A stretch of 62,011 nucleotides of DNA, filler included, from Kipferlia bialata (lineage: Eukaryota), in assembly GCA_003568945.1 (NCBI GenBank). It is 6 parts of 6 records of this genome, joined end to end, with 100 filler letters (N's around TTAATTAATTAA, not from the genome) between each part and the next. Parts side by side here need not be neighbours in the genome. Positions count along the whole stretch, not along the records: positions 22,369 to 33,446 come from BDIP01001298.1; 5 more parts are not named here. One strand, written 5' to 3'. How positions within the stretch are numbered: position 1 is the stretch's first letter; each line of letters opens with the position of its first letter. The notes beneath the pieces were generated by a model. That model had not been told where the DNA came from. It searched no databases and was given only the letters and a program-made list of their open reading frames with translations. Position numbers and translations under genes: made by a program. This document shows positions 5,879 through 36,742 of this stretch, piece by piece.

Positions 5879-6128
5879 CTATATATCCATACCCTGTCTC
5901 ATCTGCTAGTCTCTTCTGGGCCCTGTCCATGCTGAGTCTCTCCCTCTCTCTCTCTCCATATATATATACATATCCACACAACCCCTACGTACATGGAGAC
6001 CGACACTCAGACACATATATACACATACAAAAATATATACATAGACCCACCCTCAGATCATCCCACATAGCCTCTGCCTCTGCCTCTGCCTCGTCGTATC
6101 GCTGTGTAGCGAGGTAGAACTCATCCAT
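5389..6128 (-). CDS. small acidic coiled-coil hypothetical protein (multi-exon)
   Basis: First exon MDEFYLATQRYDEAEAEAEAMWDDLR; last exon VGIEENTRLLEAVCTEMEETVDDLKGCNETMCALVSSLESAVEGLDVCQDTLDSCLETVRRPPTGY*. Middle exon(s) uncertain. Confidence 0.5.
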
Positions 6129-11188: not shown

Positions 11189-11300
11189 AAAAACAAAACC
11201 CCCCCCGGAAGGGGGGGGGGGGGGGGGGAGTGGAGAATATACACAGGGCAGTCCAGTACACCAATGCATAGAGAGAGAGAGAGAGCCAGGACACCCGTAC

Positions 11301-12291: not shown

Positions 12292-13492
12292 CGTCTCTCA
12301 GTCACTAATGGCGACTCTCTGTCTTCACAGACACAGAGCCCCAAGTTGTGTCTCTCTCGGCCCCCCTGGACTCTAAGGGGGAAGACTGGTGCACTCTTCT
12401 AAAGCTAAGCACTATTCCAGTCCAACCGAATCGATGTCTATGAATAGCTCGTTGGCAGCATGTGCCAACAAAGCCAACAAAAACACCTGGACCCTTGTTT
12501 CATTTAGATCTATATACATTCTGCAGGTTCTACTTTAGGGCCGTCCTACAGAATGAAGAGCTTGGGGGATCGACTCTGGTAATATCTGGATTATTCTAGG
12601 TGTCAGTCGGGTGCCTTTCGTCAAGTCTGTATGGCAAGAGAATATTTCACCATGAATACACGGTACAATGTACATGGTGATCTATACTGACTGACGGTCT
12701 GTCACAGAAAGTGGGGTCTGAAAAGTTTTCAGTTAAAACACGACTCTATGGACAGGTGGAGCCAGGGAAGTAGGGTGTGTCTTTCACAAGTCTTGTAGGG
12801 CACCTTGTTTACAGGTACTATGTACAGTGCTCAGTAAATCTGACCCTGCCCCCTCGTAGTCTATCGCGGTCAATGTGCTTGTGGTTGACGCCGAGGACGA
12901 GGGTGTTGTCGAGTAGCCCCTCGTCTCCATGGACATTGATGAATGATGATTGTCATGGGGGGGGGGTGCCGGTGGTGGCCGTGTTCCTCGGTCCCTGGGT
13001 CACAAGTGTTGCTAGTGCTCCTGGAGGGTCCAGGGTTGGACGGGTGGACGCAGAAAGCGCAGGCTAGTGACTTGTACTCAGTGAGTGCCACTCACACTGG
13101 TACAAGGGTAGAATTGTTACACTTACCCTCCCTGTCTGATACCCTCTACCATCATAACCTGGGGAATTCCTCAGTTGATACCGATATGCACCCTCCGCAG
13201 GTTGTGGAGCGCCCAGGGCGTGTTATAGGGGATCTACACAAGTGATCATTGACGATGCAAGAAGACCTTCTGAGTAGTAATTGAAATGCTGTAAATAAGA
13301 TCATGATACCCTCAACACTGAAGGGTTTACATGGCAAAGAGATATCCTCATACTGCCAATGCCGCCGATGATATACACACAACTTCCATTTCCATTGAAC
13401 CTAGAGGAGTTGTCTGTTTCATCCTGTCAGACTATCTCCGTTAATCGGTAGACCCCTCAAATCTCTCCATCACTCCGGGGTGGACGGCCAAT

Positions 13493-16400
13493 ATGTCGGA
13501 GAGTCTCACATACCGTCTCGTCCTGGTGAGTGCCAATACTATGTCAACCCAGCAGTATCTTTCACTGTGTGACTGGGTTTTCACCTTCAGACACCTGCCC
13601 GTGTCCTTGCTCTGTACGTGGCCTGGTCTTTCCTTTGCCTCCCCGTATACCTCGCAACTAACTCGGTCCTTGACGACTGTATCATGCTCTTAGTAAGCCA
13701 TGCCCCTCAATATGTGGTCATACAGTCAACACTTACTTCTGGTCTCCGGGGTAGTACTGGTCTCCCCACATCCCTGATAGGAAGAATGGTGGTGGCCTCG
13801 TGGTGCCTCAAGGTCCTGTCGGTGCTGTCTGATATATACAGCTCAGGTCACAGAGGCATACCAATGACATCAGTGGCAGTGGTAGGTGTTGTGCCTGTGG
13901 AAACACTGCTTCTAGTCCACCGTATGTTACCAAGGAGGACAAGCCTGGAACCAGGAACCACCATTTACACAATGTTCCGATCACAAGACCAGCTATTCTT
14001 CACATTGAACACCCTAACGAGTGTGATATCTTCAGTGGCTGTCGCTGGATCCCTCCTGCTACATGTACAGAGCAGTGTGGCCAGACTGGCTCCCAAGGGG
14101 GCAGTGGTGGTGGGGGTGCTGGTTCCAAGTTTGACTCCGCTTACCCTTCCCATATTGTCCTATGGATCGTTGTCCCATATATACCAACGCCTTGTCATCT
14201 TCTTCGACTCCACTGGAGGGGACATCGCAGATGATATCACTTCTTCTCTGTGGCTGCAGAGCTATCGATACATACTTGCACGAAGGCAGCTCCCATATGA
14301 CTCTGAGGTATGTAGCACCTTGTAAGACTGTAAGTATACGGCTATCTTAGAATGCCCATGTCTGAAGCCAGGCACGTAGAGAGGTGGTCCATGACATTCA
14401 TAAGACAGTGAGAGAGGGACTCGTATGTGACCCTTCTGAGATACCCTCGTCTCTCTCCAACCTCGTGACGTACACACCGGACCACCACCAGCAGGAGAGG
14501 CACTTGACCAATTTCACTGTACATTTGCTGCTGACGAACAAGACGTATCCTGTCGGAAATAGGCCCAGTGTTGGACCATTCGTCGTAAGCATAGTACGAT
14601 ATGCTTGGTTTGCTGTCCTGACATACCTAGCGTCGCACTACAATGGACGATGGTCTGGGTTCTTACTCGACAACGCCACCTGGGGTATGACTGACACCCT
14701 CAAGGGCACGGTGTCCTATCCGTGGCACCAGCAGGCAGCGGTGCTCCCAGGACAGGTGGTCACTAGCGCCGATGACCTCATTCAAGTACTTCAGGTGGTG
14801 TTGTGACATGCTATATTGTGGTAGTGCTAACGAATATTGAGGCTTTCCAGTGTGTTAGTATTAACCTTAGGCCCTCGCGAGGGATCCGGCCTTCAGTTCC
14901 CTTCAACACAGACTGAGGACACTGACGTCCTCTGTGATATCTCACACCCTGTATACAGAGCAGGAGAGTGGGGCCAGTGTCCAGATGACTGAGTGGCTAG
15001 CCGGACACTCTCTGGTGACAGCAGTGGAGGGAGGGCACCAAGAGGCCATCTCGCCACAGGGTCGGGACTGCTCGGAGATGACCCAAACAGAGCTCGAGGC
15101 ATCTGCAGATACATCACTCCAGACCGCAGGTGGTGGTGTGTCACACAGCTTTAGCAGCCACAGCAGTACTGACCTATCTGAGGTGTCCCCATCTGCCCGT
15201 CTGATAGTGCCAGACCATGTGCAAGAGACATCAAGTTCAACATTCACACATACAAACAATGTGAGGCCCTTGCGGCTATCGTGGATGCTTGTGATACCTA
15301 TAGGTACTGATATCATTTGGCAGAACCGATATGATCATCTCATGAGTCACATTCTCATTGAGAGTTCTTCACACTCTGACACCAGACCCTAAGCGACTGA
15401 CTGAGATCAAGTGCAGAGTGTATCTGCTTCAGAGCTGGTTGAACATATACGGCGCCGGCAATGACCTACAGGTGACGCAGGAGAACTCGGCATTCCCAGG
15501 CCGCATTCATCCTGACGACGTCCCTAAGGTATGGCAGGGGCAACTTAGAGTGTCAGTAACGATACTATACGATACAGTCTTGACAGGTGTTGATGGGTGA
15601 CTATAAGCGTCCTTTTCTCTTACGGTAGGTCTATGCTGCCATAAAGAGTGTGAGGTCAGCGTCCCCAGTCTATAAGGTAGGATAATGAGTGGTCATGAAC
15701 ATCCGCTAAAGACTCTGTTCAGAGCATTCAATGTAATAGCGTTTCATCGTCGATGACGGATACTAGTCGGTGTATGACATCCTTTCCTGCGTCGCATGAC
15801 TATAGGTGGAGTGTCGGCACCGCTGCCCAAGGACATCAGATCGGTATCACCTCATGCGGTCTGTTGGGTATGGTTATAGAGTATGCAGTGCACTCAGCTA
15901 TCGAGATCTCACCATATGACGTTACTTACCTACCAGTTCATATTGTGGACCAACCTCGGACGGAGACGGATATATCGTATGCGGCTATGAGGAGCGTATT
16001 CCACGTCTATCCGTCACCTCAGATGGACGCCGGTGTGGGGACATAGCCCCTATATATACGGTGGAGTGTCAAAGGGATGGGGAGTCCGACGTCTCCGTTC
16101 CCAGCTCTGCAGACATCTATACCGGCTGTCTTTCGAGCCCTAATGGCCGGCATGCTATGAGTCACAAGAGACAGTGTGTGACTAGGGAGTGTATGACCAT
16201 ACATGACATTGTAGACAAGTCAGGTGCAGTGAGGGTAGTGCCTGTCACACTGCCAGAGATCAGACACAGTGTACCACTGACAGTCACCTGTGAGCAATGT
16301 GTGGACTCTCTCCTCGTGGCATACCACTGTCTCCATGGTATGTTCTATCAGTACTATGTGTGGAATTTGACAGTAATTGTACGCCTAGGGACACCTGGTG

Positions 16401-18429
16401 GAAATCCGAAGCGCATATGGACTAACCGACAGCCAATAGAGAGGCCCAAGCGCTACTACAACAGGCAGTTGCAGACCCACGCTTTGATGCACACACATTC
16501 CAAGCCAAGTTTGGCGAGTTTGCTTTCGGGTACTGTTTTGTCACCGATGGTGTCCATTTCCAAGACTTCAATTTCCAAACATCACCCTGATATAGTTCTC
16601 TCAAAGAGAGCTCTGACCACCAGGTGGCTATATGTGCACGCAAGAACATACCAGACAGCCACTGCAAACGTGCATATACAGCTGCGCAGCCTAATGAAGA
16701 CACTATTTACCATATATAGGTACGCAACAAGGACTTAGTGGGGTAAATGATAGTAGATGCAATCATATACATCACAAGTCTTGTGTAACCGACAGCGAGT
16801 GCTTCATAAATCAATTGTAGGAGGAGATAGTATCTAGACTAAGAGTGACACTCAGGTTCCACCGAAGTGTCCCCTTTCACAACACAGTACACACACTCGA
16901 CTCGCTGCAGGTAAGAGAATCATGAGCATAGTGACCCAAAGTAGCATGTGACAGCTACGATCGCCAATATCTTCAATCAGAGGATTACTCTCCACATATA
17001 AATACGCTCTTTAGGAGTGCGCTTCCTCCCAGGCCGGCATCCTCCTCTCCGACTGTATCTATCGATGTGGTGCTGACCAGCTTCTGATGCCACCCAGACT
17101 GCAACTCATTATCATGACAGCCATTGTCTGTGGCAATATGGACCATTCAGGTATCGGTGCATGTTATCATAGTAACCACCACAAGAGCTATGATTTCGGT
17201 GGGAACTCTCCACCTAAGTACCATGCTCCCACATGTTACTCCTACACAGGGTTAAGCCGGGACTATCTTACAGGATCAGACAACTGCATATCTACCCTGC
17301 ATGGGAGGTACGACCAGGCAGCAAGGCAGGTGGGAGAGCAGACGTCTACCACTACCACTATAACAATGCAACACTGTAACAAGGTCCAATATGTCATGTG
17401 GCAGTACATATAGGCCTGATCCATGTGTATAACAGTAGCGTTGCGTCCTATCTCACGGTAGGCGGGGCTGCTCTTCGAGGCTGTGGTGTTGGGGTGCGGG
17501 GTTAGATGGGAGCGGCAGGGTCGACGTTGGGCTCGACAACTGATAGCGGTAACTCAGGGCTCTCAGATATGGGACACTCTCCACCAGATACAGACAATGA
17601 GCACAGTGGGTCCCCTCTACGGCACCCACCGCACAGAGGTGCAGATGCCCAGTGCCGTGTCCGACACAGGGGGAGAGCTAGGTAAGGACACCACCAATGC
17701 ACCATGATAGTGTGTCCTAGTCCCTGACCCAGGCCGTGTCCAAGGAGTGCTAGCCAGGTCGATAGTCCTTCTGGCTTCCACGGCCAATATGGCCCGGGCC
17801 TGGCATACTGCAGAGATATTCGGTCGAAACTACATGAGGGAAGAGTTTGGATCTGGTATTCTGGAGGTGGGCATCCTCAGAAGAGCTAATGTCGTGATAC
17901 CACTTCGTATATCATAGTCACTCAGTACCATGAGTCAAAATACTCTGACTGAATATAGGACATGTGTCGTGGTAGTATCTCTTTGTAATTGATGAGTAAC
18001 AACAGGGAGAAGCTGGTCTTATAGTGCCAAACAAGAGATGTCTTGATGCCGGAAAACCTGAGGTCACAGCAAGTGTTTGTCAGGTGGCTAATACCAGCTA
18101 ACACACTGAAATGCTACTGATCTCATAACCTCATCACCGGGTAGACAAGTCTCTGGCCCAATACTCCACCAATGATACCGGTAACCCCAGCGCACCTACC
18201 TGCAGCGTCTGGTGATGCCCCTTCTCAAGGCATACTCCCACAAGACAAGAAGACTTGGACTCACGGTACGTGGAGCAACTTCCAATATCCCGAGGGTATG
18301 AGCAGATCTACATGGGTATAAGACTAAGATTAATCTCAGGACACATCAGCTGTGGCTAGGACACTGTTACACCAAGCAGCAGACAATGCAGAATCATGGA
18401 AGGCAATTGAAGAAGCATCAAACGAGTAG
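13493..18429 (+). CDS. large membrane-anchored class I cyclic-nucleotide phosphodiesterase-like protein with a degenerate metal-binding site
   Basis: Hydrophobic N-terminal exons at 13.6-14.7 kb. C-terminal exons read FHRSVPFHNTVHTLDSLQ (~16858-16910), IIMTAIVCGNMDHS|GLSRDYL, IVLLASTANMARAWHTAEIFGRNYMREEF, YLQRLVMPLLKAY and LLHQAADNAESWKAIEEASNE*, matching the PDEase_I motif order. The 5' end and the junction near 16.7-16.8 kb are uncertain. Confidence 0.7.
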
Positions 18430-18471
18430 AGGGTTCAATTCCCTGCACAATCAATCAATGGACGGCGAGGT

Positions 18472-18791
18472 CTATTGTGTGTCCTCGAGAACCACCTTAG
18501 CGGCCCTAGCAACTGCGTCGCCGGCCCCTGCCTTACCGGCCTCCCCTGCCTCCCAGAGAGACACGAGGAGGAGGAGGGCCTACAGTTAGGGACCAGTTCC
18601 CAAGATAGAGACACACACATACCCATACACACTAATAGATAACGCAATGCTCACCTTGGTTGGTAGGGCTGTGACCCTGCGGAGTGCCCCCAGGAGCAGA
18701 ACGGCATCGACAGCACACAGCCGGAGCGACTGCATGTTAGGAACACTCCCATAGACACTCCCACATCACGACAGCTACCCCTGATACCTAT

Positions 18792-18828
<37 letters not shown>

Positions 18829-21800
18829 CCTGTACGACCATGAGCGCCGCGTCCTGTCGCAAGGGCAGTAACAGCTGTGCGAGGTCTGCGTCAGGCGAGG
18901 AGTAGCATAGCTTAGTGCGGGTGGATGTAACTGGTGCGATGAAGGTTGCCCCCCCCATCCCCACCCCTCCCCCCTTGGGCCCCAGGTGGATGTCGGCCAG
19001 GTACAGGTGTCTGACGGAGTGGAGCGTGGGCACCATGGCGTCTGTCCCCATATCCACACACCGTGTCAGCCGTTCCACTAGGACGGTGTCAGTGGCAAGA
19101 AGGGAGGCATAGATGCTAGACGTGTCTCGGTTGCCTATACGCCGACTCTGCTGTGAGAACCCTGTAAATCTCACAGATAGCATAGGATAGTGTGGAATGC
19201 ATCACTCATCTACATTGATAGATCTGAAATGCGCATATCCATATGCACCCCCCCACCTGGTTATCTTGGCACATGCCGTGCATACACTGGATGGCTAGGC
19301 GGGACAGGGCCAGGTGCGAGGCTAGGGGGTGGAGCGGTACTGGCAGGTGGGCCAGACCCGTGCGCGTGTGGCCGACCCAGCCCCTATTCGGTCCCACCCC
19401 TTCCCTGAGGGGCCCAGCTGAGGACAGGACGGCCTGGACCCTTTGGGAGAGGGGTAGAGGGGGGCAGGGCACGCTGAGTCGGGAGGGTGCCCCAGAGCCA
19501 TGGGGTGGATAGCCAGGGGGGTGGAAAGGCGGGACGGCAGGGGCGGTCTCCCCATCCCCATCACCCTGGCCTGGTTTGCAGTCTAGGTACGCACGCTGGG
19601 CATACAGAGAGTCTGGGGCACACTGAGAGAGGACAGAGCGTAACCCAGAAATCATATCCTGCGAGTGAGAAAATGCATCCATCCAAGTTTATACACCTAT
19701 GTACCCACATGCGGACGGGTGCCCATCTGCAACGCTTGGAGGTTACGGGTAGAGGTCAGCAGCTGGGCCAGTAGATACACTCTAGGAAGGGAGAAAGGGG
19801 GCGCCAGTAGAGACTTCAAGACCACTCCTTAGGGTGAAGGGGCTATTGGGACGGTGTAGTGGAAAGAGTGTAGGTGAAACAGGGTCAATCGGGCAAGATA
19901 ACACATACAGACCCACGTGACCCATCCCCCACTACTACTCACCTGGGTCGATAGGGAGGGAGTCGAGGTGGATGGGGGCAGGGGCCAGGGGGATGAGGGC
20001 GAGGACGGCCTCTTCACCCAGAGAGGGGGGGAGGGAGTGGGGGAGGGAGGGGGGGAAGACGGAGCACGGGGTGCGCTGCTGCAGGATGGCAGGGTGGGAT
20101 ATACCAGACGCCAGGGAGAACAGAACCCCGATTAGGGAGGTATCCTTCACTAACAGTGAGGGTGGGTCATCATCGTAATAAGAGGGGTGGGTTGAGACTG
20201 CAGTGACTACCCGCTATACATACACTACCCGCACATGGTCACCCACCTACTGCTGCCTGGGTGGCGGTGCCGAGTGCCCCAGCCACTCTGACCACTCTTA
20301 GCAGTGTGTCCCCCACCCACCGGTGCCTGTCTGCTGTGGGCACAGGGGGGACGGGGGGGACGGAGAGGGGAGGGGCGTCCGAGGCATCGGCCACCCAGGA
20401 CACGGCCTCCTTGAGGAGAGCCACGCCAAGGGAGCCCAGCCCAGCTGTACCCGTCAACCCATCCGCTGAAGGTAAGGTAAGGTAAGGTAAGGTACGGTAC
20501 GGTAAGGTAAGGTAAGGTAAGGTTAGGTTTGGTGGGTAGAAGATGTGTCCAATGAGGGAGGAGGCAGGCAATGGTACATATACGTGATATACACACGGTA
20601 TATATACACATCACGGTATACACACATATGGCACCTGGTAGATGGGGACCAACGGCTGGGACTGGCGCAATGGGAGGAATTGTGGCAAACTTGCTAGCAC
20701 CCTTTGGTCTCCGCCCTGGACCCTTTCTGCATTGAGTAGAGATGACTGATGAGATACACACCAGCCAATGGGCAACTACCACCCCGCTGCCCCTCACCTG
20801 ATGGTGACGTCCACACTGTCTGGCAGCACATCCCTCCGGAGGGTGGAGGGGTGGGCACGGGCGGCACCCCCGGCCAACCAGGCCTCGACCCTGTCTAGCG
20901 CAGAGGTCACGTCGGCCTGGGGTGGGCGAGACACTCTCTAGATACACAGGGCTAATGTAGCTATAACACACACTCCCACATATGGAATATATATATATAG
21001 ATATCATACCTGTCCCCTCAGGCTGCCACAGGCCACTGCCGTCTGACACTGGTCCATCACTGTCCTCAGCTGGGAGGGCGCAAGGACATCACGGGTCTGG
21101 CGTGAGACGAGAATGGTATACATCCAACACCCGCTGTCCGTTTCATTGATATCTGATGTACTGATATCTGTTATCTGCCATGCCCCCACCTGGGCTGCCT
21201 CCTCACTCAGTACATGGGTGGGCACGGGGGTGGCACGGTGGTCGTTGAAAGGGGCCGTGGATGCAAGTTCACGGATGGCCTAGGATAGTTAGGGGGAACA
21301 GTCATAGTAATAGTAATAGTATATACATATATATATCAATATATACCCATACGCAACAGATACACTCCACGACTGACTCTAGCACTGCTTCCAGAGTTTT
21401 CTGCCGCACCTGTGCCTCCGAGGGGTCGGAGGGGGTGTCTGAGGTCCAGTCCCTTGGGTACTTGAGCCACACCATCCTGACATACCGGATCTGGGGTGGG
21501 ACCAATGATAGTGGCTGAATAGTACACCAGCAGGACACTTAAACAGTATTGAGACTTCGCTCTGAATCTGACGCATACCCTTCCCCACACATCCATGTCA
21601 CCCACCCACCTGCTCCTGCGAGGCCCTTTGGCTGAAGAGGGCCTGCTGCTCGAAGAGAAACAGGGTCTTCTCGTAGCAGATGCGGATCAGCTGGCCTTGG
21701 GTCAGATATGCTGGATGCATACTCAGAATACACACACACAGATAGATGAATACCAGCGCCCTCTCACCTGGGCAGTGCTCGGGATGACTGTACCGCAGCT

Positions 21801-22203
21801 GTCTGGCTATCCTGGGGAAGCCACCGTCTAGCAGCACCTACGGGTTACAGAGAAGCATCAGACAATGAACCAGTAGAGCTGAGTAGGTTGGTATAGGATA
21901 GGCCTGTGAGGTGACATGAGACCCCATCTCACCTTGTTCAATCCGCCCTCACTTGATATGGCCCTGTACAGCTGGTAGAGATCCACATCCCTGATGATAA
22001 GACGGAACCCGCATATGTATATATATAATCATTATCAATATATATGTACGCAAGGATTAATACTATATGACAGCTGGCTACCACACCTAGCCCCTATTCT
22101 CGGCCAAGTGGACACGTGGACACTGTTATTCCGCCAGAACATGCAGAGATCTGCATTCCAGTTGAGGATCTGGGGGTCATTCCTGGACATGCGCATAGCG
22201 GCT
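18472..22203 (-). CDS. ARID/BRIGHT DNA-binding domain protein (possibly ARID1/ARID2 SWI/SNF-like), 5' truncated
   Basis: WPRIGAR|DVDLYQLYRAISSEGGLNK|VLLDGGFPRIARQLRYS...|GQLIRICYEKTLFLFEQ matches the ARID core (vDLyxLy..V...GG, Y.k.L..fE). A long leucine-rich helical C-terminus ends ...VVLEDTQ*. Confidence 0.8.
20471..20527. repeat. (GGTAA/GGTAC)n pentamer array at an intron 3' end of the ARID gene
   Basis: About 11 units; on the minus strand reads (CCTTA)n-CCTTCAG directly into the acceptor. Confidence 0.9.
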
Positions 22204-22228
22204 CTGGTGGTTAGGGGGAGAGGATGAA

Positions 22229-22260
<32 letters not shown>

Positions 22261-22268
22261 GAAGGAGG

Positions 22269-22368: not shown

Positions 22369-22512
22369 TTGTTTTCCCCCCCCTTTTGTTTTTCCCCCCC
22401 CCCCCCCCCCACCCCGTCACTCATCTTCATTCTCCACAGCCCATCACCCTGGCTCTTAAGCCATTCTCTCCTCCTGGTCTTCCCCCCCACCCCCCCTCTC
22501 TCTCACCCCTAG

Positions 22513-23041
22513 GCCATCACCCAGGTGGCAGACCAGCAGTCACTGCTTCTGGAGCAGATCAACCGGTTGGTCAAGGTGAGGATTGGTGTGTCTGCCAGAA
22601 CGAAATATATATGAGTATATAGTAGTATATTAGTGTACTATTCTGAAGCAGTTCAAGGAGGACACCCACTTATCTGCGAATTCACTCTATAAATGTGTAG
22701 CAGTATAGTATCTATTAATTTGTATTCCCTCACCCCCAGGATCTGAAGCAGTTCAAGTACACCCACTATTGTTGTTTCACTCTATTTTTGGATTGTAGTG
22801 TTATATATATTTTGTATACTATGTGGCACTCACCCCTAGGATCTGAAGCAGTTCAAGGAGGACACCAACCTGTACTCTCTCTCTATACATAAATCATAGT
22901 ATATATATATATACATTCTTGTCCTCACCCCTAGGATCTGAAGCAGTTCAAGGAGGACACCAACCTGTACTCTCTGACAGAGTACACAGACAGACTGATA
23001 CAGTGCAGAAGGAGGGCGCTTAAGGTATGCTTGTATACATG

Positions 23042-23084
<43 letters not shown>

Positions 23085-23675
23085 TACACAGACAGACTGA
23101 TACAGTGCAGAAGGAGGGCACTTAAGGTATACGTATATACATGTATATATATAGAGAGAGAGAAAGTACACAGACGGACTGATACAGTGCAGAAGGAGGG
23201 CGCTTAAGGTATGTGTATATATATATAGATAGATGGAGAGAGAGAGAGTACACAGACAGACTGATACAGTGCAGAAGTAGGGCGCTCAAGGTATATCTAT
23301 ACTCCCTCCACCCCACGTATATATGCATATTGAGGGAGGAAGAGAGAGAGAGGCAGAGACAGAGTCATAGGTGTATGAGTCTCCCCTAGTATTGGCATTT
23401 GTATGTATTCCTACCCCCCAGGTTGTGACTAGACTGGAGGCCATTGGCACCAAGGTTGTCAATCTAAAGGACAGGTACCTCTCTCTCTCTCTCCCAGTAT
23501 ATGTATATATATTCCTCTCTCTCTCTCTCTGTCAGTGAAGGTTGTCAATCTCAAGGACAGGTATCAGGGCATATGATCATCTATAATTATATAAGTATAT
23601 CTATTCATATGTATATATATCCCTCTCCCTTACCCTTAGGGCCGTGGCCCTAGATGCCAAGGAGCAGGCAGCTCC

Positions 23676-23711
<36 letters not shown>

Positions 23712-23797
23712 GTATGTATATGTATTGTGTGTCTCTCTCTCTCTCTTATCTCGCAGGGCCGTGGCCCTTGAGGCCAAGGAGCAGGCAGCACTCCCTA

Positions 23798-23854
<57 letters not shown>

Positions 23855-23913
23855 GTATCCCTTCCTAACCCTCAGGGCCGTGGCCCTTGAGGCCAAGGAG
23901 CAGGCAGCACTCC

Positions 23914-23955
<42 letters not shown>

Positions 23956-24026
23956 GTATATACATTGTGTATCTCTCTCTCTTATCTCGCAGGGCCGTTG
24001 CCCTTGAAGCCAAGGAGCAGGCAGCA

Positions 24027-24058
<32 letters not shown>

Positions 24059-24363
24059 TAATTAATTATTATATGTATATACATTGTGTATCTCTCTCTC
24101 TTATCTCGCAGGGCCGTGGCCCTTGAGGCCAAAGAGCAGGCAGCTCTCACATCGAGGGTGGGAGAGCTCACACAGCACGCGGTAAGTGGTATTCTATATA
24201 TATAGCTATATTTGATATATATGCGTTGTCTATGACTTATCTGATGGTGGTACCATGTCCTTATGAGTTGTAGTCCCTCACTCTCCAGGATGCCCAGGCC
24301 GCTGTCTCCCCCAACCGCTACGAGCCCCAGCTGGCAGAGCTTAGGTACATAATACTACTACTG

Positions 24364-24409
<46 letters not shown>

Positions 24410-24540
24410 GTAATACATGTCTGTGTCGGTATTATTTTGAGTATAGATATACATATCCATGTACTGACCCCAGGGGCATAGTCCAGACCACAGAGGAGGA
24501 GCTCAGGAGACAGAACATCCCAACAGAGGCCATGGAATAG
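22513..24540 (+). CDS. Snapin/Pallidin-family (BLOC-1/BORC subunit-like) coiled-coil protein, 5' partial
   Basis: AITQVADQQSLLLEQINRLVK|DLKQFKEDTNLYSLTEYTDRLIQCRRRALK|VVTRLEAIGTKVVNLKDR parallels Snapin (..SQ.eL.eqId.L..eL......L.pYv.kL...rrrv). Ends NIPTEAME*. Confidence 0.65.
22635..24150 (+). repeat. three arrays of exon-edge echo repeats in the Snapin-like gene
   Basis: TCTGAAGCAGTTCAAG x4; AGTACACAGAC.GACTGATACAGTGCAGAAG...AAG|GT x4; AG|GGCCGTGGCCCTTGAGGCCAAGGAGCAGGCAGC x5 (23640, 23757, 23876, 23993, real exon 24112). Confidence 0.92.
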
Positions 24541-24961
24541 AGAGTGAGGAATAGAATAGACAATTAGATATTTGTTGAGGGAGTTTGACAATTGTCACAA
24601 TTGTTGTAATATATTATCTGATGCATCCGAAACCCCACATATGACGTCTGAATGACTGGCTTAGTACATATAGGGTCTGTTTACCAGCATAGAGTGCGAA
24701 ATGGACATGGTCTTGGAGAGTCCTGCTAATGTCTCAAATTCATTTCCATTCACAGCATCTTTCTCAGATAGCCCACATCGGACGTCTTGGTAGTAATTGA
24801 CACAGATGAAGGAGTCTGAAGTATTTGACCTCCATACTTTCTCGCAACTCTTTCATCCTATACGTGTTCGACACTGGACGGCTCACTTGTTTCACGGTAC
24901 ATACCATACCACTGTGGTATAAAACCCTTTCTTGGACATCCATCGTCCTGGACAACCCCCA

Positions 24962-26291
24962 ATGGCCTCCCCCGGCGGTTCCCCTCGCTCTTCGCGGCTG
25001 AGTTCCCTTTCCTCCCCCATGTCTCTTCCCAAGTCGCCCTCATTCCGGTCCCCTATGCGCAGAGTGATGGGTTCTCCGTCTAGAAGGACAGGTATACTGT
25101 TTTGCGTCTTTCCATGCGTTTTGGATATATGACCCCGTCTCACTCCTAGGCTCCCCCTTGTGCTCCCCTAGATCCAGGGGGTCCTCGCCCCTAGCTGCCA
25201 GTGCAGAGCGCCAGCAGCTGCGGCACTCCTCGACCAATGCCAATGTGACTGAGAATGATGTGCTGGCAGCAGAGCGCCGCATCAAGGGTATGTCTCCCAG
25301 TTGTGTATCCCTAGCTTGATTGAGAATGCCTTATATTTCTATTGTTGTCTATTAAAAGGTATACTCTTCCTCGGGTGTATATAGGGTGTCTGTAAAAGCT
25401 GCTCTCTCTGTGTTTTGTATAGTGGTCTCAGGTCAGAGAGAGCAGGTCCCCTCTCTCTCTAGTATATGTCTAGTCTCTCTCACCCCTAGGCCAGAATGCT
25501 GAATTACTCTCCTTCGAGTATATGGTCTTTGTACATAGTATATAGTATGTATATCAGTATGTATTGTGTATATAGTACCCGCATTCTCTTACCACCCAGG
25601 CCAGAAGGCCGAGCTCCTGTCCCTCGAGTATATAGTATTGCCCTCTCTCCAGGATATATGTATATAAGTACACTCGTTGCTTACCATCCAGGCCAGAAGG
25701 CCGAGCTCCTGTCCCTCGAGTCCAGGCAGAGGGTGGCTGCACAGAGGGTGGCATCCCTGATGAGAGAGAGACATGGCCTCCAGGGGGAGCTATCAGCTGT
25801 TAAGGTATACATGGTGTGTATATATAGGATATATATAGTATATATATGGTGGCATCATTGATGAGGGAGATACACGGGCTACAGGGGGAGCTATCTGCTG
25901 TCAAGGTATGTATATACATATGTGTATCTCTATTCCTCTTGTTAGGATAATGTCTATCCCTTTTGACCTCTAGGCCAGGCGTCAGAGAGAGGGAGAGAGA
26001 CACCGCCTGATGCAGGCCAGAATGGGTGGTGCATCTAGCATATCCCCAAGGTATATATTTTTGTATGTATTTATATTCCAGTGTATGTGTCAGTGATACT
26101 GATACCAGGCTCTCCGGTATGCCCCTCCCCCCCACTGCCTTCCTTGTGCCTAGCAGGAATACAAGGCAGACACAGGTATCCTCCTCTGCGAAGCCTGCCC
26201 CCTCCCCCGCCATCTCTCTCTCTGAGCTGAGAGAGGTGGTGGTGCTGAAGAGAACACTGGGTGGTATCCAGAAGGTACATACCTCCCTCCA

Positions 26292-26322
<31 letters not shown>

Positions 26323-27342
26323 ACATATAGTCATCAGTATACTGGTGTATGTACTACTTACACTATATACTACCCACCATATACTAGTGTATTCCTAACA
26401 CCAGACCAATGCCGCCCTGTCCAAGAGACTCACCTTCTACCAGACTGATGGGGCCACCCTGGTATCCAGTGCACAAGTGCAGGAGGCAGAGCACGCTAGG
26501 AGAGAGACGGAGGTATGTATAGTGTAGTGGATATTTAGAATGGTACTGTGTTCATTCCTCTATTGTCTCTAAGGCCGAGGCGGACTTGGCATGACCCCCA
26601 TCTCTCTCTCTTACTCTCTGTCTCTTTCTCTCTCTATATATATGTATGTGTATATTCGTTTCTCACACCAGGCCGAGGCCGATCTGCAGGCTCTGCGAGA
26701 TAGAGTGGCAGCAGCAGAGGCAGAGGCAGAGGCAGAGGGAGAGAAAGAGAGAGAGGCAGAGGCTGACTCTGGAGACACATCCACCAACCCCCCTCCCACC
26801 AATGGCTGTGTCCCACCTGACCTGGGGTGGCCCTCACCCCCTGTACCATGTGACGTGGAGGTGCAGGTATGTACATACGAATATATATATACTATACTAT
26901 ACTATATATCTATGGTATATATGTCCCCCCTGACCTGGGGTGGCCATCTCCACCTGTACCATGTGATGTGGAAGTACAGGTATACACTACACTTTATACA
27001 TATATATACCATAATAATAGTGGCTGGCCCTCACCCCCTGTGCCATGTGACGTTGAGGTGCAGGTACGGGTGTATTCCAACATCCACCATAGTAGCCGAT
27101 ATTTATCCTACTAATTTAGTAACAACCGGTTCCACTATAATGTCTCTTCTCTATTCCTATTCTTATACACAGGATTCCCATGCCCACCCCCACGTGTCAC
27201 CCCCGGCGGAACTGATGCAGGTATGTATATATAGTGCACCTACTGTACTGCCCCCTCCTCTCTCTCTCCATCCACCATTCCACTCCCACTTATGCCGTCT
27301 CTGACCCCTCAGGAGGACGACTATGGCTACTGGGGCTTCTGA
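24962..27342 (+). CDS. SP-rich, coiled-coil hypothetical protein (about 9 exons)
   Basis: MASPGGSPRSSRLSS...|...AAERRIK|GQKAELLSLESRQRVAAQRVASLMRERHGLQGELSAVK|...|AEADLQALRDR...PCDVEVQ|DSHAHPHVSPPAELMQ|EDDYGYWGF*. Confidence 0.75.
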
Positions 27343-27714
27343 TCAATGTACACTCTCAATGTGCATCCTGTACTGTATCAGCGTCCCTTCCCTAGTGTCC
27401 CATTCTAAGGGTCTAGCCTTGTTGCTGGCAGGGCTATACCCAGTGTCCCACGTATTGATGTTGCGTGGTATTTATGATTTGACTTATTGGTCTCTCTAAC
27501 CTATGAGTAAATACACCTATGTATGTTATCCGTGGTGAGACTGCAAGTACCACATCTCAATCTTCAAGTGATACCTTATCCATCTACAATTTGTGGCGCT
27601 CTATCTATTGTCCACTTCATTCAGACTACTCCTGCTTCCTTCCCCTACAAGTCATCAACCACCCCTAGAAGTATATGTACGCCAAAAGTAATGTCTATAT
27701 CTATTCTATTGAGA

Positions 27715-29162
27715 CTACTTGCGCTGTTCCCCAGCCCTGGATGCCATCATCTCCTTCAGTGTGTTGGTGAGTGCCGCAATGGGGTCTGACCCTGCCTCTC
27801 CCTCCCCCTCTCCATCCATGCCGATCACTGTACTGTCACCACTGCCCCACATAGACATGGAGGGGAGGTCAGCAGCGGTGTTGCTAGGCCCAGCACTGGT
27901 AGGACCCATACCCATACTGCCCATACTGGTGTCTAGTGCCCTCTGCATCTGCCGCAGAAGGTCCCCCCCCTCCCCCTCCCCCCCTCCCTGTGCCCACTGT
28001 TCCTCCTCCTTGTCCAGCATGGAGAGCATGTGGTCGATGCGGGTGGCAGTGTCCTGGGAGTACCTGAAGTGAGAGGGAGAGAGAGAGAGAGAGAGAACAT
28101 CATGTATAACATGGGGTGGCAGTGTCCTGGGAGTACCTAGCGTCAGAGTACATACAGCTCAGAGAGGATTGATGATAGATATAATACCGGGTAGGATGTG
28201 ATGTCGATCTGACATTGTTGAGACAAATAGTCACCAAATATACCATATATCACATGTTGATACCTTGTTGTGTCTGATGCAGACCCGACCTTGGGTAGAG
28301 GCACTCGGTCAGAGGAGGACGCAACCCTGGTGTAAACATGTATATATGTATACATAAATAGGAGAAAATAGTGTACACATAAGTACATTACTGATATATC
28401 ACTCTGTCAGAGGAGGAAGCCACCCTGGGGTCAATGTACTCCATATAGTAGACAGATGCACGGAGTTGTAATAATAGTATGTACCTAGGGATGAAGGTCA
28501 TCCCTCTGTCTCTCTCTCTCTCTATATATATATGTGTGGGTATATGTATATGTATGTGTATGTGTAGGAAACTCTGTACCTTGGGTTGACTGTCCTCCCC
28601 TTCACCTTCCCCTTCCCCTTCCCCTTCTTCACCACATATATATAGGAAACAATATATATATATTGACATACTCCAATAGTGTATTAATAATACATATACA
28701 TACCTTGGGTTTACTGTCCTCCCCCTCGCCTTCCCCTTGCCCTTCCCCTTCTTCACCTTGGCACCACCCACATGGGTGTGGGTGGGGGCAGCGTCAGTGG
28801 CTAGAGTTAGTATTAGATATATATATACAGAGAGAGAGAGAGACATGGTGTGGGTGGGGGCAACGTCAGTGGTTAGGATTAGATATATGCATACAGCTAG
28901 GTGTACATGCAGGGGTACTCTTACATTATTTCCTACCCACTCTCTCCATATATAAAAGAAACTGAATATCTCCGTACCTTTCCCTAGCCCCTCGACACAC
29001 ACACATACATATATATATATTATGGAAAAGGAATGATGTACCTTTCCCTAGCCCCTCGAGCCATGCCAGCACGGCAGGGGACTGGGTCACACCACCCTTG
29101 GCCTTGGCAGTATTCTTCTTGGACACCTTCTTGCCCTTTCCTAGGAGTGAGAGAGTTAGTAA

Positions 29163-29203
<41 letters not shown>

Positions 29204-32003
29204 TCAACGTACCCTTCCCCTTCTTGCCCTTCTTGCCCTTGGTGGCACCACTCTCTCCCTCCCCCTCTCCCTCTCCCTCTCCCTCCCCCTCTGTCTCTCT
29301 GAACATCTCCTTGTTGAGGAAGGGTGTGGAGGGGTAGAAGGAGGGCTCAGTGTCAGCCATACTGAGTGACAGGTTATAAAGCGACCCGAGAGAAGGCAGG
29401 GCAGCGGTAGGTCCACACTCCTCACCATCCTCCTCCTCTGCTCTCTCTCTCTCCCTCTCCACGTTGGGTCTTCCGTACAGACCCCTCACACGGCTGGTGA
29501 GTGCTGCAAAGCGACCACCTCTTGGTGCTCCCTCCTCACTCTCTGGGGTAGTAGTGTCTGTAGTGGTAGGTGCAGGGGGTATGGTAGAGGGGTCGTACCA
29601 CTCCATGAGAGAGGGTAGTACCAGTACCCCATCGGCACCCTCCTCAATAGTCTCCACCCCTGCAACCTCTCTCTCCCCCTCTCTCTCTGTGCCTGAGACT
29701 AAGGCCAGACCGGCACTGGCGCACATGCCCTCCAGCACAGTGGCTATACAGCTATGCACATCATCCCCCTCTCCCTCTCCTTCCTTCCCCTTGCCCTTCC
29801 CCTTGCCCTGTGAGAGTATGTCCATGGCAGTCTGGTGCAGTGCCATCTCCTTTGAGCACTTGAGCACCCCCTTCCTCACACACTTGTCCACAGCTGCCTC
29901 GACAGCAGACAGGTCAATGTCCACATCAGGCACCTTCACCTTGCCCTTCTTACCCTGTGCCTTGGCCTCTGCCTTGGCCTGCACTCTCAGCCTCTTGGTC
30001 TCTCTCTTGACCCACTCCAGTGTGTGCTCAGAGGCCAGCTCCACCAGACCCTCCACAGCTATGCAGAGTCTGATACCAGCTAGGCCACCCTCCTCCTCGG
30101 CTAGGTGCATAAGGGCAGGGGGGAGTGGGTCCACCATGCCCTCCCCACTGGCACTCTCCTGCTGGTGCTGCATCTCATACAATAAGAAGGAGGCGGCATG
30201 GATCTCTGACAGATACACACACCCCATCACAGGGGAGGTGTCTGGGAGCACATCCACCCCTTGCTCGCCCTCCCTCACTGCCAGTATGTGGGGGAGGGTG
30301 GGGGGAGGGGTATACACAACGGGTCTCGAGTTGGGGGCAGGGCCCTCTCTCTCCGCCTCTCTCTCCCCCTCCCTCCTGTCTAGTAGGCATAGCGCCAGGG
30401 GTATGGTGTGGGCAGAGGCGTTGCGGAGTGTCTGCGTCATGGGTGCAGTAGATACACTGGGAGGGGTCTCTGTAGGAAGGGAGGAGAAGTGTGGCATACC
30501 ACCACTCTCTCCCTCCCCCTCTCCCTCTCCCTCCCCCTCTCTCTGACTGGCCTGGACGAGAGGGTTGAACCCCTTACCCTGCAGCATATCTGCAACACAC
30601 CTGGGCAGACATACAGGCACACGCACTAGCCCATCGGGTCTAGTGGTGGCATCAGATGCCACCACCCTAGGTGCCTGGGAGGCATACGCAGTGTGTGCAC
30701 GGCGTGTCAGACCCTCAGAGACACTAGGTAGGTGGTATGCAGAGGGGTCAGAGACAAGGAGTGACAGGATGTCAGACCGGCCCTTGGCCTTGGCCTCACT
30801 CTCTCCCTCTCCCTCTCCCTCTCCCTCTCCCTCTGTGTCTGAGTCTGACCCCTCGGAGTCTGTATCCTCCATGCCACCAGTATGGTGGGGGCCAACATAG
30901 TACACACCACCTGGGGTATTAGAGAATGATTCACGGGTTGCATATTACTCATGGCTGATTACTATTCCATATGTGCATACCTCTGTATAGATACACCCTC
31001 CCCTTGGCCTCAGATGGACTCAGGTCAAGGTCAGTGCCCTTACTCTCTCCCTCTCCCTCTCCCTCTCCCTCCCAGTCATCCAGGTCAACACCTCTCTTGC
31101 CCTTGGTCTTTGACCCCTTTTCACCCTTTCTTCTGGATGTACCGTCCATCAAGGGTGCAGCAGTGAGTAGGAACATGCCATCTGTGTCTAAACACTCAAT
31201 GGCAACGTCCAGGGAGAGGGAGAGGGCCTGCAGTAGCCACACTAGGGACTGGGGGTTAGACACAAGTAGGTACATTGGTAATAATACAATGGGAATATTA
31301 GATGGAGACACGAGATAGCACAATGGTATATATGCTATGTGTATGTATATCTACCCACCCACTCACTGGTCAGGTCCTGTCCGATGTGCAGATGGACAAG
31401 GCAGTGGGGGGGCTCAGAGGGGTCCTGGGTTAGGAGGTATATAATCATACGTGTGTGTGTGGTTAGAGAAAGACATAAATATATATGTGGATGGGGAATG
31501 TATCCCCTGTACCAGTGTTTGCATTCAATCAATCAATATGGTTGCTTACACATCAATACATATATCATAGGGAGAGACAGGATATACATCATACCTTTGG
31601 TGTCACTGCATATAACAATGGGTCACAGCAGTGGTTGATACATACAACGTACATACATATACACACACATATACTCATGTACCTTTGGTGTGACTGCATA
31701 CAACAGTGGGTCACAGCAGTGGTTGATACATATTGACATATATACACACACATATACTCATGTACCTTTGGTGTGACTGCATATAACAATGGGTCACAGC
31801 AGTGGCTGGTACATATTGATATATATATATGTATATATATGTATATATATACCTTTGGTGTGACTGCGTATAACAATGGGTCACAGCAGTGGCTGGAACA
31901 TATTGATATAAATATATATATGTATGTATATATATATGTGTGTATATATGTATCTATATACCTTTGGTGTGACTGCATATAACAGTGGGTCGCAGCAGTG
32001 GCT

Positions 32004-32050
<47 letters not shown>

Positions 32051-32480
32051 CTATACCTTTGGTGTGACTGCATATAACAATGGGTCACAGCAGTGGCTGG
32101 TCTTGAGCCTGGTCTCTATGAACTGCCTCATCTCACTAGCCACGTCCTTGACATCCCCGGAGAGGGGGAAGACCTAAGGGGGTAAGAGAGAGAGAGGGGG
32201 GGGCAACACCATCTGATACCGACGGGGGGAGGGGGGGGTTCAATATCAATTCCCACTTCCCCAAGATAAGACAATCACCACTCCAGTCACAATATAAACT
32301 GGACGATGAGACAGAGAGCGTAGATGGATAGAGAGAGTGACTCGAGAGTACACACTTGATTGGCTGGGACATAGATACCTCCTCACATACTCAACCCCTC
32401 CCCCACGAATATATATGGAAGAATAGGTGTATATATCTACGCACCTTGGCTGTCACTGCACCATCCGACACCACATTCAT
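27715..32480 (-). CDS. large low-complexity (EG/KG-rich) hypothetical protein
   Basis: [51 protein letters not shown]|... includes the ~1.7-kb exon underlying the 659-aa ORF and ends ...[12 protein letters not shown]. Confidence 0.75.
31590..32102 (-). repeat. six-unit donor-side echo array
   Basis: ACCTTTGGTGT(G/C)ACTGC.TA..ACA.TGGGTC.CAGCAGTGG (plus strand) near 31593, 31681, 31764, 31851, 31960 and 32056 (the last is the real exon end), with TA-rich spacers. Confidence 0.93.
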
Positions 32481-33804: not shown

Positions 33805-36742
33805 GTATGAGGAGAGTGGTCTAGATGCCTCATTCTGGAGTGATGGATACCCAACGGCAGGTACAGATGTGTGTATAGCATTACATATGAATACATGCAT
33901 CTGCTACACATATACGTATGCTCTATATGATATATATGCTGTGTATGTGATGAGTACCCAACGGCAGGTACAGATGTGAGTGTATATAGCAATGTATTTG
34001 TTTTGACTACATAACTTTGGATTGGTTAGGACTAACTTTCTGGTATATATGTGAGCGGTACATAGACAAGTGGGGGTATCATGGGTACGTTCAGAGAAGA
34101 CTACAATGTACATATACATCTATATTTACCTAATTGCATGTCCCCTTCTGTTCGCTATGGATGTACTGATAATCCATAAGTATAGATGGATAATTAAATG
34201 TATTACTACAGGTGCACTTCTGCTGGCTAAGAGTGTATATACATGAGAACGCATTAATAGATACAATGCATATATTTAATACACCTAATTACATCCAGTC
34301 CCCTACTAGCTATACATATCTGTTATTCATATTGGAAAAACTAATATATACATATACATAGTACTATAGTTATTCATATTGTATAAATTAATATATACAT
34401 ATACATGGACATACGTTTATATACCTGACCTGATATGGTCATATGAATATGTACTAACTGCAGGTGCCCTTCTGCCAGCCAATGATATACGCAGATACAC
34501 ATTACTGTATATACATCTATATGTATACATCTATATATACTATCTGCAGGTGCCCTTCTCCTAGCCATGTATATATGTGTATATGTATATTTATATATTA
34601 CTATATATGTACTATACATGTACTATACATACTCATATCAGGTTCCTTCTCCTAGCCATGGATGAACAGTCAGGGAGGCACTGGTTTATGTCAGGTATTT
34701 GTGTATGCACATATGATAGTCAGGGTACTATCCGAATATATATACATAGTAATCATACAGGTCTCGTTCTCCCCCCCCCACGCACCGTCCCCTCCCCATC
34801 CTCATGTTTATCCTCTTTCACCCCCTCACTCTCTAGCCGACCGCAAGACCGTCCACTGTGAGACAGTCAGGGGCAGTGACTGTCAATGCGCCATACATGT
34901 GTCAGCGAAGGGAAAGGGTGAGGCTCTGGTTCCTCTCTTAATACATATCGAACTATGTATCTCCCCTACTGCCCCACTTTCACGTATATGAGAATTGATT
35001 TGAATCATAGCTATGCTTAAACAGGTCAGAGAGTCTTAGAGGGGCAAGAGTGTTTCCGCATATTCGTCCTCTCCATGTATAGAAGCTATATACGTCTCTC
35101 TCCCTCTTATGTAGGCTGGCACCTGATACGGTTCAAACGCCCCAGTGTCAAGGGACCTAGCAACTGCCACGCTGACAACTGTGTGCGGCAGGTCAGTATT
35201 AGTACTTTGCAAAGAAGATAGAAGTAAGATTATCGTTGTTGTCCTCACCCCTTGATACTTTTGACTTATGTCGCATGTGTGTCCTAGCACCAGGTGTGAG
35301 TGTGTTGATATTATTCTCTATATGTTACTCTTCCATTCCATGCTGGGTACCAAGAGCACTTAGGGATTATGTGACAAGATTCTTCTCTAATGTCTCAGCG
35401 CCGTTATGACCTCCACTCCCAGCCTCTTTCCCTGTTCTACCCTATGGATGATGGAGAGGCCGTAAAGTCATGTGACAGTCTGACCCCGCTTGCAGCGCTT
35501 TCAAGCACTGAGGTTGGTATCTCCGTCTAACTCATGTCTCTCCATGTGTGCACTTATGTGGTAAGAATAACATTAGTTAATACCGTGATAGTACAGTGAC
35601 ACTTTAGCTGTCTCATATACCGGTAATGTGTCTCACTATAGGTGCTATGTGCTCCTGGTCCAAGAGTGTACAGGCTCAGCACTCTCTCCGTCCCCGCTGT
35701 GTGTGATGCGTCTGCCCTTTGCTTCTCTCGCAGTGATATCCTTACTGTACCCTACCGTTTAAGTGTAGTGTTGGATCCAAATACTCACCCGGTTTCGTGT
35801 GTAGTTGGCACCACTTTGTATACCGTGTGTCATGAAAGAGGAGGAGGGGTCGGAAACTGGTCCTTCCTAAGGCTTGAGATGGACACCTACGAGAGTACTG
35901 TAGTGCCCTGGGGACAGGGTGGTAGACACCCCATGCTGAAGAAGTCTATGGGTCATCCAGAACCCATATTCCCCATGCCAATGTGTGATATCTCTTGCGT
36001 GTCACTCGATGACCGCATTCTGTGTATGTGGAGAGTCGGCGATGGTGACGATAAAGACCTCGTCCTTGTGGTGTACACTCCAGCTACAGGTGCCTGGGAG
36101 TGGCCCCCAGTGCCAGCTCGTCTCTCTGAGCGCCTCTCTGACCCTCTTCGTGACGATGACGAGGATCTATACCCGTTGATGGCTGTGGTTAGAGGTGCTG
36201 TGCACCTTATCCCTGGGGGAATGAAGTATCCCATTCCTCACTGGACTATAGCTCCCAGGAGTGGGGATGGTGACAACTGGGTTTGGCGCCACTTGGGATG
36301 GCTGCCATTGGGCGTTTCAGGTGAGGAGGGTGTGACAGCTGTGACTACAGTGGGAGACAAGCTGCTGACTGAGTGTATGCCTAAGCATGATGCGCGTCGT
36401 ATCTATGGGAGTAGCCACTACCACTCTTACACTCCCGAGACTGGTGAGTGGGTTCCGTGGATATCCGCGGACGCATTCACGTTTCCAGGGGTGTCGGTCT
36501 CTCCGACTGGGTCTGTTCAGTTGAGCTCCAGATTGCGTAGAGATCGTTTTCAGTCTCTATCTATAACCAAAGAACTCACAGTGTGCTGTGTGACACCCGA
36601 CTCTCAGTACCCTCATGATAGTCTGAGGTGGGCAGAGCACTTCTTTCTATCGGCTACTGAGAGCAAGGGGTACAGACACACGTACGAGCTGATATATTTG
36701 ACGTTCCTTATGTACCATGATATATATAGAGGACTATACTGA
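33805..36742 (+). CDS. kelch-like beta-propeller protein (large last exon 35642-36742; upstream exons tentative)
   Basis: 366-codon exon after an acceptor, with repeated blades PVSCVVGTTLYTV, CVSLDDRILCM...VYTPATGAWEW, MAVVRGAVHLIPGG and TTVGDKLL...SYTPETGEWVPW. Confidence 0.6.

Follow-up and report, generated by a model that had tools for sequence, protein, structure and literature searches.

The introns of Kipferlia bialata carry tandem partial copies of the exons that they adjoin, as we found in a 62 kb window of its genome (the whole stretch of DNA analysed, to which all positions and echo counts below refer). Each unit of these arrays consists of a piece of the exon, its splice site, and an AT-rich spacer, with a length of ~100 nt, and we call the exon-derived copies echoes. 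The echoes differ from their working exons mainly at silent sites; in 100 echo-exon pairs, the proportion of differing sites is 0.199 for synonymous sites (pS) and 0.033 for replacement sites (pN), which corresponds to a pS/pN ratio of 6.1. This excess likely arose from the repeated copying-in of other working alleles by unequal recombination. The organism is a free-living fornicate, for which the main text of PMC5874029 describes a fragmented short-read assembly of 51 Mb with 124,912 GT-AG introns.

Structure and physical presence of the echoes

We counted the echoes in 15 hand-curated gene pieces, whose reading frames were set by open-frame exon chaining, independently of the mismatches; a self-trained gene finder over-predicted and was used as a guide only. 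The gene at 5392-6130 and the middle parts of genes I, K, and L were excluded as uncertain, and exon H is one base short in the data set. Genes A, D, E, F, G, J, and N have open frames by canonical GT-AG splicing alone. The nine-exon model of gene F gives the same 334-aa protein as KIPB_005515, with a 100% match over exon 26672-26866, and a contig from a second sequencing run, presumed to be RNA by guess and not by record, agrees with its first exons. Each exon was compared with its adjoining introns by frame-blind ungapped alignment. The search found 103 pairs, three of which were removed because they had no junction anchor, leaving 100 pairs in 64 families; the shuffled-intron control gave 0-2 matches per run (six runs).

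A donor echo is an exon end followed by GT, located in the downstream intron, and an acceptor echo is an AG-bearing acceptor followed by the exon start, located in the upstream intron. The echoes are 17-53 nt long (5-95% range) and number one to five per junction side, and the units are arranged head-to-tail with a spacing of 73-153 nt (5-95% range; median 104, n = 100); young units match across the spacer as well. They occur in at least 10 unrelated genes and always adjoin their own exon. At least one echo is present in 44 of the 69 internal introns of the curated genes, and the median intron length is 374 nt with echoes versus 107 nt in the 25 introns without. Few echoes possess a second splice site, at or below the background level: an acceptor lies near the far end of 2/56 donor echoes (background 10.5%) and a donor near the far end of 17/44 acceptor echoes (background 48%), three of the 17 being in frame, which indicates that the echoes are not cassette exons. 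No real echo was found in the 58 predicted introns of four other regions, which gave two low-complexity matches. The genes at 11189-22268 and 45900-51000, with short introns and few AT microsatellites, are echo-free across these 58 predicted introns, so that the echoes are patchy along the genome. The multi-exon gene at 46872-49270 (+), presumably akin to a mitochondrial porin/Tom40-type barrel, is likewise without echoes.

The echoes are real and stand in tandem with the exon on single contigs at ordinary depth. Contigs of a DNA run and of the run presumed to be RNA were compared with the window over 22380-31580 (9.2 kb). The DNA run possibly comes from the window's own sample, and it therefore represents a separate assembly, not a separate sample. 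Three DNA contigs span exon and echoes with no differing letter, at 25692-26279, 26773-27957, and 22520-22858 (depths of 453.5, 413.6, and 379.9, respectively), the second of which carries exon end 26866 together with both of its echoes. These echo-spanning contigs lie at depths of 380-454 versus 431-490 for the other five listed contigs, and no allelic variant was listed for the DNA run over the 9.2 kb. In the run presumed to be RNA, whose contigs drop rare forms, a GT-AG joint from 22573 to 22933 bypasses a set of three acceptor echoes. Within an 880-nt contig, the space available for exons 25692-25804 and 25974-26050 is exactly the 189 nt that they require. Both results suggest that the main message contains no additional echo. 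No collapse joint was present among the 15 joints listed for the contigs.

Silent and replacement differences between echoes and exons

The 100 pairs contain 144.5 synonymous differences over 725 sites and 77.5 replacement differences over 2372 sites. Mismatches by codon position number 44/38/150. Donor and acceptor echo counts agree, and 17 pairs are identical. The ratio ranges over 3.8-8.0 in a family bootstrap and over 4.3-5.8 with one echo per family (103-pair set), and it was 5.8 in the 89 pairs left by a first low-complexity filter, which lost real echoes. The search also missed short echoes such as a further acceptor echo of exon 26672 at 26574-26588 (+), which has three silent changes in 15 nt and is below the search length; such losses make the pooled ratio conservative.

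For the null, a neutral echo was placed beside an exon drifting at silent sites and trimmed in the same way. The mean ratios were 2.05-2.49 and the maximum was 4.76 in 240 replicates, so the observed silent excess stands. A kappa of 4 raised the null ratio only to 2.5, and transitions account for 33 of 79 replacements. A neutral-echo model is worse by 68 units of the Akaike information criterion (AIC), and an offset model gives an extra silent divergence of 0.14. The initial annotation, which had compared eight pairs by hand, described the copies as diverging almost only at synonymous sites and expected neutral decay to yield mostly replacements. The excess is real, but only 65% of the differences are silent and a third are replacements; the expectation was too lenient, because silent changes accumulate in the working exon as well and a fair null ratio is ~2, which the excess survives.

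All eight pairs are present, but they lie mostly in the upper tail of the pS values. The counts of synonymous and replacement changes were recovered for 26923-26979 (7/0; aligned here as 26922-26979 versus 26809-26866), 27022-27063 (3/0), and 25848-25905 (8/1). For 267-296, given as 5/0, the aligned core 268-293 shows 3/0 and two further silent changes fall in the trimmed ends; for 1626-1656, given as six synonymous and one replaced codon, the core 1630-1655 shows 5/0 and the longer span adds the replaced codon. The silent counts of 10577-10610 (3/0), 60487-60536 (4/1), and 58145-58195 (5/1) hold, but these pairs now read 3/2, 4/2, and 5/2, because the earlier spans ended a few bases before the far-end replacements.

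The suggestion that the copies had passed through coding selection is borne out by comparisons among the echoes themselves, which give a pS of 0.255 and a pN of 0.042 (ratio ~6). Changes private to one echo comprise 50 silent and 34 replacement changes, and 13 silent changes are common to all echoes of a family; two-echo families show 11 shared versus 33 private silent changes. The two echoes of exon end 26866 have none of their six and three changes in common. Three states occur at 4/102 variable sites.

The replacements themselves look unselected, which argues against a steady coding constraint on the echoes at present. Four stops occur in the 68 replaced codons (3.4 expected), the mean BLOSUM score of the replaced codons is -0.39 versus -0.52 ± 0.20, and indels are found in 5/100 echoes, four of which are wholly frameshifting. 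The GT/AG of the echoes changes at a rate of 0-5% per base, like pN; eight losses were flagged among 96 pairs, of which five are real and three are artefacts on inspection. GC-to-AT changes versus the reverse number 39 versus 21 among replacements and 53 versus 47 among silent changes, an AT bias that is suggestive only, the exons being GC-rich. The splice flanks of the echoes differ from the real ones at 7.0 of 16 acceptor positions and 2.5 of six donor positions (38 and 49 pairs); their consensus scores are 9.6 versus 11.4 for acceptors and 6.2 versus 6.3 for donors, against 2.3 and 3.3 for a null of random change. Where the distance to the far end is at least 32 nt, pN amounts to 2/297 and pS to 0.28. 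Free sites are thus ~20% or more apart and constrained sites ~3% apart, so that the ancestor of each echo must have served as a working junction during most of the period since its split from the present exon.

Origin of the echoes

Such a history requires that two functional copies existed side by side. Gene F has no paralog in our search, which leaves alleles or homologs as donors. On balance, we favor the reading that the echoes are junction-spanning minisatellites, refreshed from working alleles by unequal exchange between divergent alleles. The one- to five-fold repetition of exon piece, splice site, and spacer within the intron is the observed step. An echo would be harmless, because exon definition would skip a copy with one splice site only. 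Its exon homology of 20-60 nt would allow it to mispair with the working exon of the homologous chromosome, and the exchange would bring the junction-side sequence and intron flank of the donor allele into the echo, or add an echo, while the reciprocal product would collapse the echo into the exon and then be screened by selection. Silent and free flank sites would thus differ by the allelic diversity, ~0.14-0.17, and constrained sites by the decay after refreshing, ~0.03, each echo being a slightly decayed sample of another functional allele. As donors, we envisage either alleles encountered during sex or parasex or homologs that diverged long ago and share a diploid, polyploid, or hybrid phase. 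Microhomology of microsatellites at the far breakpoint is clear in gene E but was rejected as a general origin, with 20/100 cases versus a background of 15.6%.

We built a toy forward model with an N of 100-150, in which a unit has 40 sites, 25% of them free, and selection against changes in the first unit is lethal. It reproduces the data when homologs exchange at an N*u of 30-60: pS is 0.155-0.25, pN is 0.023-0.028, and the ratio is 6.1-9.1 in four of four settings, with ~0.9 echo per junction, a pN that falls toward the junction, and a pS near the population silent diversity. At an N*u of 20, the ratio is 2.8-5.9. The model would need a silent diversity of ~0.15 and an exchange a few hundred times commoner than point mutation per site. 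The initial annotation had listed collapse or conversion into the exon and capture from divergent alleles as separate mechanisms; the second is the one that the model favors, and since the refreshing of an echo and the reciprocal collapse belong to one exchange, the two would be products of a single event. According to the excerpted text of PMC8516963, fornicates lack non-homologous end joining and Rad51A but possess two Dmc1 paralogs and have kept meiotic genes. Silent diversity in protists can be very high, for example in Paramecium with an effective population size of 10^7-10^8 (parts of PMC11334263 and PMC12895298). Further observations in favor of this reading come from the pairs themselves. 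Pairs free of replacements (51) and pairs with some (49) have the same pS (0.197 and 0.202), and no correlation of pS with pN was seen, although the test is weak because neither count is much overdispersed. The flanks keep their consensus at a z of 10 (acceptor) and 7 (donor) against random change. Mismatches at zero-fold sites are shifted toward the far end (p < 0.001, or p = 0.019 when the last 6 nt are excluded), and those at four-fold sites are not. All four gametes are present in one family, at the one site pair that allows the comparison (1/1).

Several points weigh against this reading. The N*u settings of 30-60 were chosen after the data had been seen, and the model speaks for sufficiency, not proof; homolog exchange gave a ratio of only 1.7-2.2 at an N*u of ~5 and 1.4-2.1 in several other runs. 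By AIC, the offset model (541.6) is not separable from constant selection on the echoes (540.5). The counts are hardly overdispersed, below what random echo ages would give, and the z values of the flank consensus are overstated because the null has no indels. The pS is independent of flank similarity (rho -0.10, n = 88; pS 0.17 for the eight most similar flanks), which requires frequent exon-limited exchange, and the echo at 23993 (+), whose flank matches the real one over ~45 nt and which yet has four silent changes in 37 nt, requires an extra exon-limited conversion. Alignment overrun may account for part of the far-end gradient, and the four-gamete evidence comes from a single site pair. 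Sex is unobserved in metamonads and a relative is predicted to be haploid, as the excerpted text of PMC8516963 states. A second strain or allele was looked for and not found, so the donor alleles are unobserved, and with no allelic variants over 9.2 kb the present culture looks haploid or homozygous. In metagenome scans for relatives, one query protein had no match and another matched two loci only, at 44-48% identity (4/64 parts scanned).

One alternative, which we consider unlikely, is use at the RNA level, in which transcripts jump between the direct repeats by non-canonical splicing or template switching and join the exon body to the junction half of an echo. For the RNA- or DNA-level jump that the initial annotation had listed, the contig data give no support. 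Weak coding and splice selection on the echo would follow, and with it the silent excess, the kept flank consensus, and the fewer replacements near the junction; constant selection on the echoes fits as well by AIC, and a precise swap of echo for exon would leave the message length unchanged, the closest skipped acceptor echoes being identical to the exon. However, the replacements are non-conservative, stops occur at the neutral rate, indels shift the frame, and five GT/AG are lost, while 25/69 curated introns are echo-free and the working exons are intact and canonical. The presumed-RNA depth of 12.5 in 25450-25756 is nearer to that of real exon-end read-on (11.7) than to that of a jump at 25746 (9.9), a weak hint. 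It is similarly doubtful that the introns hold, genome-wide, spare half-exons that are actually swapped into the message or, during recombination-based repair, into the gene. It is equally doubtful that such use, which would have no described counterpart, is frequent enough for selection to keep the echoes silent-only and splice-competent.

Less probable still are events within one chromosome lineage, in which sister-chromatid expansion and collapse or echo-exon conversion would swap echoes into the exon. The arrays of one to five units, the mosaic copies, and the young units matching over the spacer speak for such events. In the toy model, however, pooled ratios under sister-only exchange were 1.5-2.2 in seven of seven settings, whether echo-exon conversion was included or not (single seeds up to 3.5; 0.8-2.5 per seed in another run set), and fast turnover cut pS to 0.02-0.06, versus 0.20 observed. 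The mechanism of collapse or conversion within one lineage, as first proposed, is thus unlikely, its pooled ratio in the model never exceeding 2.2. We give as little credence to the echoes being neutral snapshots, with the free sites of the working exon and its splice flank changing at an exceptional pace, as could happen if selection favored divergence from the echo. The 11 shared versus 33 private silent changes in two-echo families are compatible with such a ladder, but an approximately fivefold acceleration would be required at silent and intronic sites alike, and the changes are family-wide in 13 cases versus private in 50, with none common to the two echoes of exon end 26866.

Capture from paralogous genes elsewhere in the genome is very unlikely; the deep echo at 2050-2085 has stop-free whole-codon replacements, as a paralog would, but the single match of gene F is itself (one protein among 6069 candidates), and the echoes occur in all kinds of genes, always next to their own exon. 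A paralog search with the gene A exon found no match, not even its own protein, and is hence uninformative. Finally, the mis-assembly of divergent haplotypes that the initial annotation had raised is hardly credible: the assembly is fragmented and short-read (main text of PMC5874029) and the DNA run may be the window's own sample, but contigs from a separate assembly carry the exon and its echoes in tandem, at ordinary depth and with zero other letters, no allelic variants are listed, and a junction has up to five different copies.

The arrays resemble minisatellites that turn over by allelic unequal exchange or conversion in their head-to-tail units, a copy number that varies between junctions, and apparently mosaic copies, inter-allelic exchange being also the engine that we propose for the echoes. 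They differ in that the first or last unit belongs to a working exon and splice site, so that one end of the array is under coding selection, and in that they recur, with a different sequence each time, at the majority of junctions in many unrelated genes. Tandem, mutually exclusive, or cassette exons are likewise neighboring exon copies with a ratio of nonsynonymous to synonymous divergence (dN/dS) well below 1; they were rejected, given the single splice site of the echoes and the stops and frameshifts found in them. The silent cassettes of VSG, vlsE, and pilS are also unexpressed partial copies able to recombine into an expressed locus, but they store amino-acid variety in one family, whereas the echoes hold silent variety in ordinary genes with no sign of purpose; with a pS/pN of 6.1 and echoes in at least 10 unrelated genes, antigenic variation of this kind was rejected. 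Ciliate pointer repeats and the excision of internal eliminated sequences similarly involve direct repeats around AT-rich spacers within genes, but the repeats here are 12-58 nt long and diverged, and full arrays are present on the DNA contigs; such excision was rejected because the exon is complete and the frame open without it. Proto-splice-site duplication, in which an AG/GT coding segment duplicates to give a new intron (parts of PMC2891723; review, PMC3488318), shares the short tandem duplication, the exon-derived sequence in an intron, and the unchanged protein. In the case of the echoes, however, it is a pre-existing junction that has been copied, several times over, within a pre-existing intron, and the copies show a silent-site excess. 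Intron gain by this route was rejected, as the host introns have a GT and AG of their own bordering the working exons, from which AT-rich spacers separate the echoes. Such arrays were not found described in the literature searched, mostly open papers, or in parts of PMC5874029 and PMC6679479.

Individual echoes and their implications

Table 1. Positions of gene F and of representative working exon ends and echoes in the window.
Feature	Position	Strand	Remarks
Gene F, KIPB_005515	24962-27342	+	334 aa, lineage-specific, 9 exons; open chain; identical annotated protein
Gene F exons 1-5	24962-25091, 25150-25287, 25692-25804, 25974-26050, 26109-26274	+	
Gene F exons 6-9	26405-26512, 26672-26866, 27173-27220, 27313-27342	+	
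Working exon end	25747-25804	+	Source of the echo at 25848
Donor echo of 25747-25804	25848-25905	+	8 synonymous, 1 replacement; no acceptor ahead; on the exon's DNA contig, depth 453.5
Acceptor echo of exon 25692	25600-25629	+	30 nt identical; flank differs at 6/16 positions
Second acceptor echo of exon 25692	25490-25519	+	4 synonymous, 3 replacement
Working exon end (VPPDLGWPSPPVPCDVEVQ)	26809-26866	+	Source of two echoes
Donor echo 1 of 26809-26866	26922-26979	+	7 synonymous, 0 replacement
Donor echo 2 of 26809-26866	27022-27063	+	3 synonymous, 0 replacement; none common to echo 1
Four acceptor echoes of exon 24112-24181	23640-24029	+	Two alternating unrelated flanks; 10 synonymous, 1 replacement
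Three donor echoes of exon 22935-23024	23078-23290	+	
Three acceptor echoes of exon 22935-23024	22642-22880	+	
Five acceptor echoes of exon 7979-7840	8041-8501	-	One stop-bearing
Working exon end with five downstream donor echoes	32057-32101	-	All four combinations seen at two sites, pointing to recombination between copies
Acceptor echo of exon 362-426, MATE-like gene A	268-293	+	3 synonymous, 0 replacement
Acceptor echo of exon 1730-1832	1630-1655	+	5 synonymous, 0 replacement
Donor echo of exon 10771-10657	10579-10617	-	3 synonymous, 2 replacement; twin at 10507-10545
Donor echo of exon 58370-58266	58145-58197	-	5 synonymous, 2 replacement; next echo, 58057-58100, with stop
Donor echo of exon 60685-60613	60487-60540	-	4 synonymous, 2 replacement

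The positions of gene F and of the echoes named above are given in Table 1. At 23640-24148 (+), the two unrelated acceptor flanks alternate with a period of ~236 nt. The deep acceptor echo at 2050-2085 (+; SIHWGLVFALLQ versus SIGWGLFFALLM) is sub-threshold, extends in frame over 36 nt, and is followed by GT; its differences are replaced whole codons, free of stops. At 34212-34694 (+), three acceptor echoes retain the exon start GALLLA, the distal copy at 34642 being one base short; a 15-nt downstream shift of the working acceptor would keep the frame, and the echoes may preserve the intron state before this slide. An older acceptor echo at ~56340 (56340-56039, -) begins ~9 nt before the present exon 56104-56039, which suggests an acceptor shift. 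Four short sub-threshold acceptor echoes at 43093-43579 (-) have D at codon 3, where the working exon has H, and perhaps represent an older or alternative allele. The gene at 5392-6130 (-), which lies outside the counts, has a donor-type echo and exons that resist in-frame chaining.

Among the other genes of the window, exon 45985-46248, within the segment 44723-55781, is a 100% match to the K. bialata ribosomal P2 protein. Intron 2 of this gene (46231-46338, +) lies within an EEESEE motif that is duplicated, the arrangement expected after intron gain through tandem duplication. A Pfam search with 14 exon translations named P2 and, weakly, MatE (E 0.0017, gene A exon 1731-1832), and no others. 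Gene N at 59200-61549 (-), for which Pfam was blank on one exon, we take to resemble LisH-type proteins of the centrosome such as FOP/FOR20.

Gene callers and dN/dS tests can take such dead copies for alternative exons. If the proposed origin is true, the echoes would explain much of the intron length of K. bialata (medians of 374 versus 107 nt), and exon definition in its reduced spliceosome would have to be strict, with up to five good acceptors passed over. The echoes would also provide a route for splice-site replacement and intron sliding. Based on 100 echoes in 62 kb and a rough scaling to 51 Mb, for which the window may be enriched, a haploid-looking genome would hold tens of thousands of allele samples. 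One genome would thus be a record of hidden sex and high diversity, with a direct estimate of silent diversity of ~0.15, and the echoes would be a testable trace of homolog exchange in a metamonad, a group in which sex is unobserved according to the excerpted text of PMC8516963.

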